Program-made: the position numbers and the translations under genes
The notes under the pieces: generated by a model
Database searches by the model: none
The model's input: the letters and a program-made list of their open reading frames with translations, nothing else
What the model was told of the DNA's origin: nothing
Shown: one piece after another, positions 1,459 through 57,740 of the stretch
Position numbering within the stretch: position 1 is the stretch's first letter
How the letters are laid out: each line of letters opens with the position of its first letter
DNA from: Eledone cirrhosa
Taxonomy: Eukaryota
Assembly: GCA_964016885.1 (NCBI GenBank)
Contig: OZ024743.1
Span: 303,800,001-303,864,000, forward strand
DNA length: 64,000 bases
Direction of reading: 5' to 3'

Positions 1459-1537
1459 GAAGAAGAAGAAGAAGAAGAAGGAGGATAATAATAATAATAA
1501 TAATAATAATAATAATAATAATAATAATAATAATAAT
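1459..1537. repeat. Compound microsatellite (GAA)n-(AAT)n; left edge of array 1 and 3' tail/target of Tx1A copy 1
   Basis: Read directly: GAA run from 1459, then AAT run to 1537. Confidence 0.97.
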
Positions 1538-1779
1538 GTTTTCTTTATTAACCACAAGGGTTTACATAAAGTAGACATTAAGGACAGTACAGGACAATAC
1601 AGGACGGTACAAATGGGCATTTCTGCGTGTAAAAAACAGAGGATGAAATAAAATAACAAAGAAAAATTCCCCAATAGGGGGGAGATTTCCGAGGAACATT
1701 TGTGGAGAAAGCCCATTAAAAGACCACAGTGACCCTGACCACCAGGGCAAGTGCCCTCTCCCAGTTTTCCCCCCTTAAT

Positions 1780-54900: not shown

Positions 54901-57694
54901 GAATAGAGTCCATTAGGTTTAGTAACGCTTTGGCAATAGAGAAAAATAGAGCAGAGGGAGAACTAGTTAGAAAATTAGACGTGGCGCTGAGCAAAGGCAT
55001 CGCGACTAACGTACTTGCGGCGAAATTGGCCCTTGACCAATTCTTCAATGCAAAGCACGAAGGCTGCGTTGTCAGAGCTAGGATGCGTGCTCTCAGACAC
55101 GAGGGGATGAAAACCGTTCAATGGGCCCGAGTGGCGGAGGCGCGTCGTGGCAACAAAGCCACGATCTGGTCTTTGGTGGACCACGACGGGCGCATGCTAC
55201 TGGATCCCGGGCAAATGTGTGAAGCATTTCAGCAACACTTCGCTCAACTGTTCGAGGGCAGCGGCGGGCCGGATCGAGGGATGGACTTTAGTGTCTACCT
55301 CGACGGACTGCCGCAGCTTTCGGTTACTGGGGCGGTAGTTGTGAAAAGCCGATAACAGCCGCTGAAGTACGGGCGGCAATGACAGGCAGCACAAGGGTAA
55401 ATCGCCTGATTTGGATGATCTGGCCTATGAACTTTACGTACAATTGCCAGACTTGTTCGGAGGCCTCTTGGCGGACGTCTACTGCAACTGGCAACAGAAC
55501 GGGAGAATTCCCAGCTCTGTGAGCCGAGGAGCGGTGGCGCTGCTGCGAAAGGATCCGAACAAGGGGGATAACATAGATAATGTTAGGCCCATAACTCTGC
55601 TAAACACAGAGTTCAAGCTTTTAGCCAAGGTGCTAGCAAAGAGGTTGGCGCTTATCGTTGGTGGTCTGGTGGGAGAGGAGCAGACATGCGCCATTCCCGA
55701 CAGATCCATCCACGACAACCTCCACCTCATGCGATACATCGTAAAGAGGGTAGCTAGGGAACCTGGCACGGGTGGGTCCTTGATCAATTTAGATCAGTCG
55801 AAAGCTTTCGATAGTGTCGACCATCGTTACCTAGCGGCAGTCCTGAGTGCGGCTGGCTTTGGGCCCGTATTCAGAGGCTGGATTGCTGGCATGCACAGCG
55901 ACATCTGCTCTGCGGTGAGAGTGATCGGTCACCTTTCGGAACCGTTCAGCATCATGCGCTCGGTACGCCAAGGATGTCCCCTCTCGTCCCTCTTGTACGT
56001 ATTGACTCTCGAGCCATTACTGCACAAACTGGAGACGTTGAGGTGGGTCCCGCGTGAAATAGGATGCGGAAGATCCGTGTCAGCATATGCGGACGATGTC
56101 ACCGTAGTGGTGTCGAACGCCAAACACATCGAGGCGATCGGCACTACACTAAGAGAATACGAAAGGAGACAGGAGCAATGATCAACCAGGAAAAGTCAGT
56201 GGGCCTGCAGCTCGGCACCTGGAGAGGCAGGTCCATGCCGTCCAACATCGTTGTCAGGCGCTGGACGGACGGACCGGTTAAATTGCTAGGGGTCTGGTTC
56301 GGTCCGGACCTCCAGACGGACAAAAACTGGGACGAGGTGACGAGCAGGGTGGCTTCTCTCACCCAGAAATGGGCGGAGAGGAAGCTATCCCTGAAAGGTC
56401 GAGCGGAGGTGTGTAACGCGTACATCGCGTCCGTTATCTACTACCGCCTGACCGTCGTACCTTGTCCTAAGCCCCGCCTGACTGCGCTGAAGCGTTTGCG
56501 CTTTCGCTTTTTGTGGAAGGGATGCGTTCCGATGGTCAAGCGGTCCATCTGCTGTCAACACCTGCTACGTGGAGGGCTGGGCATGCCATGGCTGATGATA
56601 CGCAGACACGCACTCAGGCTACATCTCCACCTCTTCTTTGACGGTGATCAGGTGTGGTCGCCGTTTGCTAAACACGTCTTTCCCCAGCTCATTTCCTTTA
56701 CGGAGCTGCAGTCCTGGGTCAAACGAAGACCGAGAGGAAGCGCTTGGAGATTGGAAATTCTATAGGCGCTCATAGCCCTCGACCAATCGGTCAATGTGAT
56801 CGGTTTAAAACTCCACCTTGGCGTTCTATAGAGGATCAGTGGAGGGTAAGAGCGACGACGTACTTGGAGAAACACTAGGCGTCGACGAAAATCAACTAGC
56901 CAATCTCTTCGAAAGGACTTTCGGGCAGAGGCCTATGGACAACCTCCAGAAATCTCTGGCCTGGCAGTGCTACCGAGGAGCTTTGCCTGTTCGGGATAAA
57001 CTCTACAGGCATGGAGGTGCCGTCAGCCGGGCATGTCCGAGCTGCACGCAGGGCGACGATACCGTCCTGCACGCACGCGTCCAGTGTCCGAGCATTGCTG
57101 ACTTGTGGGTTTATGTCGAACACCTGCTGTCACGTGTAGGATGGATCCAGCTATCAGCTGAGTCCATCGTGAGGATTTCCCGCCCTCTTCCTTTAGCCGG
57201 GAAGGGCAGGCTGTTTGTATCTGTCTGGTGGCCCTGGCGAAAGAGATAGTATGGTGGACACGTTTGAAAGGGCTGAAGACAAGCACTTACCTCTTCGGTG
57301 ATGCCCTGATTAACTTTTTCAAATTTCATTTAAAAAGGAAAATCAAGGTAGAGAGGGAAGTGCTCTCTTCCCAGCATTTTGTTGAAAGATGGGTGAGAGA
57401 AGCAAGTATGGCCCGAGTGAATGGGCCTACTCTGAGTATGTGTCTGTAAATTAAAGGTGGAAAACTGGGAGAGGGCACTTGCCCTGGTGGTCAGGGTCAC
57501 TGTGGCCTTTTAATGGGGTTTTTCCACAAATGTCCCTCGGAAGTCTCCCCCCTATTGGGGAATTTTACATTGTTGTTTTTTATTACATCCTCTGTTTTTT
57601 TTACACGCAGAAATGCCCATTTGTACATCCGGTATTGTCGTGTACTGTCCTTAATGTCTACTTTATGTAAACCATTGTGGTTAATAAAGAAAGC
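51984..57694 (+). mobile_element. Tx1A copy 3 (full length, decayed; ORF1 ~52198-54156, ORF2 ~54191-57449)
   Basis: Inverted homologue of 1538-8216. Intact knuckle CVVCGEGTHLRAFC at ~53241-53282. APE/RT motifs present, with deletions in the endonuclease start. Confidence 0.93.
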
Positions 57695-57740
57695 ATTATA
57701 ATTATTATTATCATTACTATTATTATTATTATAATATTAT
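57695..57740. repeat. Degenerate (ATT)n; right edge of array 2
   Basis: Read directly. Confidence 0.9.

Follow-up and report, generated by a model that had tools for sequence, protein, structure and literature searches.

In the silkworm, the telomeric repeat (TTAGG)n receives the LINEs TRAS1 and SART1, which face opposite ways and build up into arrays (excerpts of PMC7265360 and PMC10088271). The arrays described here, from the genome of Eledone, resemble this system as those excerpts portray it, since two LINE families share one short repeat, insert in opposite directions and build arrays. However, TRAS1 and SART1 are both APE-type elements of the single R1 clade and are confined to chromosome ends, whereas the Eledone pair combines an element with a restriction-like endonuclease (RLE) and an APE element on a dispersed trinucleotide. 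The window, by which we mean the whole 64-kb stretch of DNA analysed here, is situated 303.8 Mb into a contig of 378.8 Mb, its target is AAT, and one of the two partners is of the RLE type. The Eledone arrays thus work like the TRAS/SART system but are no member of it. R1 (APE) and R2 (RLE) also share one multicopy target, 28S rDNA, where they occupy separate fixed sites in the same orientation with one insertion per site. The likeness lies in the pairing of an APE with an RLE element on one multicopy target; the difference is that insertion into rDNA adds no targets.

Each of the two Eledone lineages has a described counterpart. Dong, DongAg and DongBg of the R4 lineage target TAA microsatellites, also in a snail (excerpt of PMC3812793), and a primer sequence in PMC3774820 (excerpt) shows that the sense strand of silkworm Dong has (TAA)n at its 5' junction. 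Dong is classed as APE-type in PMC3812793 but placed with R4/R2 in the excerpts of PMC3774820 and PMC3636483. The Eledone families B and C share with Dong, as excerpted, the TAA target, the sense-strand polarity and a single ORF with reverse transcriptase (RT), a CCHC knuckle and a PD..D..K motif. Dong has a 5' HDV-like ribozyme; a search of B and C against Rfam gave no match at E ≤ 1. The excerpts of PMC3812793 and PMC3774820 make no mention of mixed Dong/Tx1 arrays. Among Tx1 elements, Kibi, Koshi and crocodilian families are specific to the microsatellites (TC)n, (TTC)n, (TTCC)n and (TTTC)n (excerpt of PMC4494074). They resemble the Eledone families A and D as APE elements with microsatellite specificity, but neither (AAT)n/(ATT)n nor (TATC)n is among the targets named in that excerpt. 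In cephalopods, the recently active LINEs of Octopus vulgaris include five Dong-R4 and 13 L1-Tx1 families (excerpt of PMC13282606), and both groups have expanded in coleoids (excerpt of PMC8967140). These two excerpted annotation texts give counts and hotspots, with nothing on target specificity, polarity or arrays.

Two LINE arrays and their element families

Tandem-repeat, ORF and self-BLAST scans resolved two arrays in the window, whose sequence contains no N. Array 1 (1485–25546, 24.1 kb) has AAT on the plus strand and array 2 (30682–57745, 27.1 kb) has ATT on the plus strand. LINE pieces occupy 50.4 of the 64 kb and include 15 copies from four families, A and D of the APE type and B and C of the RLE type, and the microsatellite runs comprise 4–28 units.

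Array 1 begins with an (AAT)17 run preceded by (GAA)7 (1485–1537, plus strand). The run is followed by A1 (1538–8216, minus strand), a full-length, young Tx1-like LINE, 2.2% from its nearest copies, with a CCHC motif in ORF1 and a frameshifted APE-RT-zf ORF2; a 22-bp minisatellite of 37.6 copies (6085–6912) lies within its ORF1. An (AAT)15 run (8217–8261, plus) forms the head-to-head junction between the 5' ends of A1 and the 5'-truncated RLE LINE B1 (8262–10228, plus). The near full-length RLE LINE B2 (10265–14703, plus) and the 5'-truncated Tx1-like A2 (14752–16880, minus) come next, and an (AAT)12 run (16881–16916, plus) joins the truncated 5' ends of A2 and C1. The array is completed by four RLE LINEs on the plus strand, namely C1 (16917–18219), C2 (18304–20290), C3 (20354–24900) and C4 (24940–25490). 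C3 is full-length and the other three are 5'-truncated; C2 encodes RT, CCHC and PD..D..K in a single frame, and (AAT)15(AAG)16 after C4 is the right end of the array.

Array 2 starts with B3 (30717–35386, minus), a full-length and older (5.1%) RLE LINE. An (ATT)7 run (35387–35407, plus) is the head-to-head junction between its 5' end and that of D1 (35408–41315, plus), a full-length Tx1-like LINE and the sole young copy of array 2 (1.2%). After a 105-bp stub (41364–41468, plus) follow three minus-strand RLE LINEs of an older subfamily, the 5'-truncated C5 (41489–42243) and C6 (42275–45105), and C7 (45166–48896), truncated within its 5' UTR. A SINE of about 190 bp is nested within C7 (approximate ends 48084–48271, plus) and reads into a short ATT tail. 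An (ATT)4 run (48897–48908, plus) separates the 5' end of C7 from that of the facing D2 (48909–51956, plus), a 5'-truncated, older (7.2%) Tx1-like LINE. The last copy is A3 (51984–57695, plus), full-length, Tx1-like and older (5.1%), and a decayed ATT run to 57745 closes the array. The stub is 86% identical to a genomic locus (L108) whose ORF1 matches the ORF1 of A and D, and it is the 5' end of another Tx1-like family, the fifth in the window (F), whose body is missing here.

All ten B and C copies read 5' to 3' into (AAT)n and all five A and D copies read into (ATT)n. Junction inspection also placed a run of the same polarity at each 5' end of the 15 copies; the run at 42243–42274 is decayed, and the one at 48897 has four units. 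The first-pass annotation had claimed that all 15 LINE insertions sit in (AAT)n runs, with strictly opposite polarity of the two clades in both arrays, and both claims hold for the 15 copies. Its inventory of 15 copies was correct but overlooked the stub, a 16th piece, and the SINE in C7. Its further claim that no LINE is nested in another applies to the window copies but is not absolute genome-wide, where some copies adjoin or interrupt the bodies of other elements without a run.

The ORFs of B and C, read directly, encode RT, a CCHC knuckle of the form C-x2-C-x7-H-x4-C and a PD..D..K endonuclease motif; the motif definitions follow an excerpt of PMC4640811. A domain search of these ORFs returned zero matches to the APE domain Exo_endo_phos. 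A C-type protein is closer to R2 than to L1 proteins in the PDB (E = 4e-19 vs 1e-4), and the 5' ends of B and C are conserved and precise. One natural C copy elsewhere in the genome (L358) is a single 1136-aa open frame with RVT_1; it lacks a few RT-motif residues that C2 has. The 120 homologues listed for these proteins and the cluster members carry no clade names. By their domains and TAA target, B and C are probably Dong/R4-like.

Families A and D encode an ORF1 with CCHC and an ORF2 with an N-terminal APE domain, RT and a C-terminal zinc knuckle, an architecture established for these two alone among the Tx1-like families. In one genomic copy (L346), ORF2 matched Exo_endo_phos (1.6e-14) and RVT_1 (1e-27), and zf-RVT was found in the search with a window ORF2. 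The Tx1-like ORF2 also matches L1 ORF2p (E = 4e-56). The ORF1 of D resembles CCHC/RRM clusters at 0.91–0.93, and the ORF1s of A, D, E and F match one another, H having been compared at the DNA level only. The 'Transposon TX1 149 kDa protein' (coral, 38%) is one named entry among the 120 matches listed, which also include cuttlefish homologues. We consider A, D, E, F and H likely to be Tx1-like, an assignment made by such matches.

Flanks and polarity across the genome

The 3.0-Gb genome was surveyed with eight element-end searches, from whose queries the repeat was excluded. The best 30 of 40 scored loci were kept per query, from 80–1676 candidates, giving 240 loci that lean to young copies and large chromosomes. 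Ten blocks of 100 kb were added, of which two adjoin the window and eight were placed arbitrarily at round coordinates. After removal of the eight loci of the window itself, 232 loci and the ten blocks (1.74 Mb) were scored for pieces of at least 120 bp and at least 82% identity, and 67 internal breaks and four edge cases were dropped.

In this sample (best 30 per query plus blocks, for all counts of ends given here), 199 of 224 Tx1-like ends adjoin (ATT)n and none adjoins (AAT)n. Conversely, 289 of 327 RLE ends adjoin (AAT)n, the TAA of the sense strand, and one adjoins (ATT)n; at this sole exception (L116), the remnant of a Tx1 tail lies in between. By type of end, ATT adjoins 91/95 3' ends, 84/87 full 5' ends and 24/42 truncated 5' ends of Tx1-like copies, and AAT adjoins 156/163, 43/50 and 90/114 of the respective RLE ends. 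For comparison, 1.9% of bases in the eight arbitrary blocks have a run of at least three units no more than 45 bp away. Further Tx1-like 5' ends on ATT belong to E (12/12), F (one) and H (one). The proposed community exceeds four families, with at least five Tx1-like 5' ends. Each family has at least hundreds of copies, with up to 1676 first-look candidates. The polarity rule also governs neighbours: among 177 pairs facing each other across a run, 85 are RLE/Tx1 in opposite orientation, 68 RLE/RLE in the same orientation and 20 Tx1/Tx1 in the same orientation. The rule is kept in 173 of the 177, and in the other four the run itself flips strand.

The pattern of clade by strand is genome-wide and sharply defined. 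Tabulating genomic copies by flank and orientation, a check proposed in the first-pass annotation, thus upheld the fixed opposite polarity. Since 42 of 156 truncated 5' ends (18/42 Tx1-like and 24/114 RLE) lack a run of three units, either targeting or the survival of runs is imperfect. Targeting is strong yet imperfect.

Growth of the arrays and origin of the polarity

In the eight arbitrary blocks, the families cover 41.4 of 800 kb (5.2%). Of the 21 runs of at least eight units in these blocks, 15 touch a LINE, three a SINE and three neither, and shorter runs touch a LINE in 8 of 33 cases. A LINE lies across the run for 137 of 232 sampled ends (59%). A hand count, with small numbers and samples that overlap in kind, gives a 43–55% chance that a new insertion in a random run meets a LINE on a given side; since this is close to the observed 59%, no extra attraction is needed. 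When copy age is taken as the distance to the three nearest copies, 142 neighbour pairs divide into 69 young-young, 58 mixed and 15 old-old (rho 0.12). The truncation breakpoint differs in every truncated copy. Mixed ages and unique truncation points speak for insertion one step at a time and less for duplication or mis-assembly; repeated independent insertion is the likely way in which the arrays grew. Growth by repeated insertion had been proposed at the outset, and the 58 mixed pairs and the 15 long runs touching a LINE support it.

No empty site was found for array 1: the similarity of its left flank to an older, unrelated repeat stops at 1437, and seven other loci all fail to continue into the right flank, which is single-copy. 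Among 20 LINE copies with imperfect flanks, no clean short target-site duplication was present; one locus (L345) may have a target-site duplication of about 170 bp. Metagenome scans by protein alignment or by the Tx1 3'-end pattern yielded no relatives of the elements in other organisms.

Other origins of the runs and arrays can be weighed against independent insertion into a target. If the runs were mere 3' tails and loose insertion simply piled up in gene-poor DNA, runs should favour 3' ends, and they are indeed commoner there (247/258) than at truncated 5' ends (114/156). However, four 5'-to-5' junctions in the window (at 8217, 16881, 35387 and 48897) bear a run that neither neighbour's tail explains, so the run is the target and not a tail alone. 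Full 5' ends have a run in 127 of 137 cases against the 1.9% background, including copies without a LINE neighbour, and the 5' census already contradicts the tail explanation, which we give almost no credence. Joining of unrelated contigs at microsatellites during assembly is hardly more plausible. Six public runs are listed, and the four aligned to 700–18400 consist of short contigs or 150-bp reads, none spanning the stretch, but mis-joins would neither follow the clade-by-strand rule in 173 of 177 pairs nor yield unique breakpoints, and runs of 4–28 units in a window free of N are far below long-read length. Construction in bursts, through template jumps, local hopping or duplication, is unlikely. 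All eight copies of array 1 are young (0.8–2.2%), whereas in array 2 one of seven, D1, is young and the others are older (5.1–7.7%), a distribution more clumped than steady accretion predicts. C1–C4 stand in tandem and are 96.5–97.8% alike, and one inverted duplication was observed in a block. On the other hand, every truncated copy has its own breakpoint, copies match distant loci equally well or better than their neighbours, and head-to-head RLE/Tx1 pairs are impossible from one priming event. The many pairs of mixed age and the low rho also make any burst signal weak genome-wide.

In target-primed reverse transcription, the orientation of an element reveals the strand used for priming. The opposite orientations thus mean that the two clades prime on opposite strands, (ATT)n being the priming strand of RLE elements and (AAT)n that of Tx1-like elements. 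Whether enzyme or RNA sets this choice can be approached through the tails. In young C tails, variant triplets recur at positions 1–3 (19/25, 7/26 and 10/25) and are nearly absent beyond, which makes it likely that the first units of the run are part of the RNA and could pair with the primer. At the 3' ends of A and D, a poly(A)-signal hexamer lies a few bases ahead of the run and the copies have no poly(A) tail, which would fit RNA cleavage inside the run. Repeat units are likely present on the element RNAs, and their pairing with the target could determine polarity. The 5' junctions differ in phase relative to the run: A has a single phase (42/42), E nearly so (12/13), and D is variable, with 9/29 in that phase. 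The SINE, with a 3' end similar to that of Tx1 on visual comparison, retains ATT polarity at short sites, has a 5' run in 13 of 83 pieces and lies mostly outside long runs; 17 of 26 full copies have direct repeats of at least 8 bp, nine of which begin with ATTA. Since the SINE keeps the polarity without being confined to runs, pairing alone does not explain the choice of runs, and the relation among tail, enzyme and target is not simple.

Pairing between RNA and target might nevertheless set polarity by itself. The enzymes would then cut either strand of the run, or AT-rich DNA in general, priming would be confined to the strand able to pair with the repeat tail of the RNA, and orientation would be inherited through that tail and not the enzyme. 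The RNA-borne tail start of C, the hexamer of A and D and the polarity and direct repeats of the SINE are all in keeping with this, and pairing aids the priming of SART1 (excerpt of PMC7265360). It does not account for the preference for long runs that LINEs have and the SINE lacks, leaves the single 5' phase of A unexplained, and sits poorly with the finding that swapping endonuclease domains switches the specificity of TRAS1 and SART1 (same excerpt). We regard pairing as the sole determinant as doubtful, though a serious possibility, and consider instead that both steps may act, the enzyme locating the run and the RNA tail locking the direction. A different question is whether the two clades evolved opposite polarity to share the target with less interference, the strand partitioning suggested in the first-pass annotation. 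In its favour, exceptions to the polarity are very rare, and no type of pair is more frequent than mixed neighbours (85/177). Relatives on other microsatellites, however, keep the polarity of their clade. Sister Tx1 families of about 70% DNA identity read into (TATC)n at 9 of 15 anchored 3' ends, have TATC at their truncated 5' ends as well and occur in separate tandem arrays; a midpoint-rooted tree of 22 rows, one of them without the repeat, divides them from the ATT group as distinct clades (100/100 each). Distant RLE families (33–40% protein identity) read into (ACAT)n in 8/8 cases, a partly circular count because the anchors were derived from the copies first seen. Across three different repeats, Tx1 elements thus read the T-rich strand and RLE elements the A-rich strand, and no partner was seen on the other repeats in 1 Mb. 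Both clades, moreover, insert into the very same double-stranded runs, and each insertion adds targets instead of consuming them. Division of a resource by strand is for these reasons very improbable, and the opposite polarity on AAT looks like a coincidence of two inherited habits, not avoidance.

Proposed mechanism and significance

We consider, with a probability of roughly 80%, that the RLE LINEs (B, C) read into (AAT)n and the APE LINEs (A, D, E, F, H) into (ATT)n genome-wide, and that the arrays likely arose from repeated independent insertion, each event likely primed on the strand preferred by the lineage. Both ends of full-length copies and of most truncated copies adjoin a run of fixed polarity, and under target-primed reverse transcription the T-rich strand would serve as primer for RLE elements and the A-rich strand for Tx1-like ones. 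The endonuclease may select the run. Read-through into the donor's run may leave a few repeat units on the 3' end of the RNA, and their pairing with the nicked strand would then fix the orientation. Each insertion would leave a run on both sides, so that most long runs would come to lie beside a LINE and insertions would stack. The opposite polarity would be a by-product of two clade-wide preferences meeting on AAT, not a division of the target.

Precedent exists for every ingredient of this account, and the advance lies in their combination and scale. Within the partial texts returned by a full-text literature search, no AAT-targeting Tx1 family and no RLE and APE elements on a common dispersed microsatellite were reported, although Repbase or supplements may list such families or cases. 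The arrays provide a natural system in which two unrelated endonuclease folds act on one three-base repeat from opposite strands. They make it testable whether enzyme specificity or RNA-target pairing decides the site and direction of LINE insertion, and they bear on new candidates for programmable insertion. They also suggest a simple explanation for LINE hotspots, namely that these are safe sites which multiply themselves. For AAT microsatellite markers in such animals, the flanks would often be LINE ends.

A broader reading, which we put forward tentatively and at somewhat less than even odds, is that microsatellite-targeting LINE guilds create the niche in which they live. LINE junctions would then account for most long (AAT)n runs, the AAT guild with its two endonuclease classes would make up about 5% of the genome, and parallel guilds would occupy (TATC)n and (ACAT)n. 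Polarity would be a deep clade rule, borne in part by the RNA tail, with target and orientation inherited together. If this is true, the expansion of Dong-R4 and L1-Tx1 elements in cephalopods would be recast as site-specific, self-amplifying and largely harmless to genes.

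LINE families on other microsatellites

Tx1-like families that are about 70% alike to D, one of the Tx1-like LINE families reading into (ATT)n, read instead into (TATC)n, and they build tandem arrays of their own. These copies are found at L131-L133 (G000:C4:303875900-303889100), L144-L145, and L163-L170, and they constitute a second microsatellite guild, that is, a set of LINEs sharing one microsatellite target. A third guild is formed on (ACAT)n by distant RLE families, two or more in number, whose copies (L146, L158, L162, L178, and L220) read into this repeat. The copies of these families are arranged in tandem, and their truncated 5' ends also carry (ACAT)n. 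The 3' end of another D relative, L211 (G000:C2:300005350-300009000), leads into a short ATT stretch followed by (AGT)n, and this single copy possibly represents a shift of target.

Repeats and decay in the window arrays

At the borders of arrays, or between (AAT)n and the 5' ends of RLE elements, (AAG)n is frequent, as observed at window positions 1459-1480, 25545-25593, and 30682-30704 and at L097, L099, L105, L113, and L115 elsewhere in the genome. Compound AAT/AAG microsatellites may belong to the target. Within ORF1 of A1, a full-length copy of the Tx1-like family A, a 22-bp minisatellite is expanded to 37.6 copies (window 6085-6912), and this repeat is skipped by other copies.

The two arrays of the window lie 5 kb apart. 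All copies in array 1 (1485-25546) are young, as against a single one in array 2 (30682-57745), and the microsatellite runs of the older array 2 are shorter and decayed. Between the arrays, fragmented ORF pieces (26442-27503, minus strand) appear similar to a DNA-transposon protein; a Pfam search of these pieces gave no match.

Duplicated junctions and tandem units

A young D copy, L345 (G000:C5:54734900-54741540), is flanked on either side by a near-identical unit of run, SINE fragment, and run. These flanks perhaps represent either a target duplication of ~170 bp that arose by cuts in two adjacent runs or a pre-existing tandem. At L201-L202 (G000:C1:330009100-330012900), a junction of the RLE family C, a run, and an A-like element is duplicated in inverted form, with the C breakpoint identical on both arms. 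L135 (G000:C4:303904300-303906200) consists of four tandem units of ~558 bp, each with (ATT)4.

A SINE with an ATT tail

An abundant SINE of ~190 bp ends in an ATT tail, with 83 pieces in eight arbitrary 100-kb genome blocks and copies in the window at 48084-48271 and 61276-61466. Its final ~25 bases, judged by eye, are like the 3' end of the Tx1-like elements, and it is accompanied by direct repeats of 8-24 bp that frequently start with ATTA. This SINE is possibly mobilised by Tx1-like LINEs, and its ATT tails could possibly serve as seeds of new arrays.
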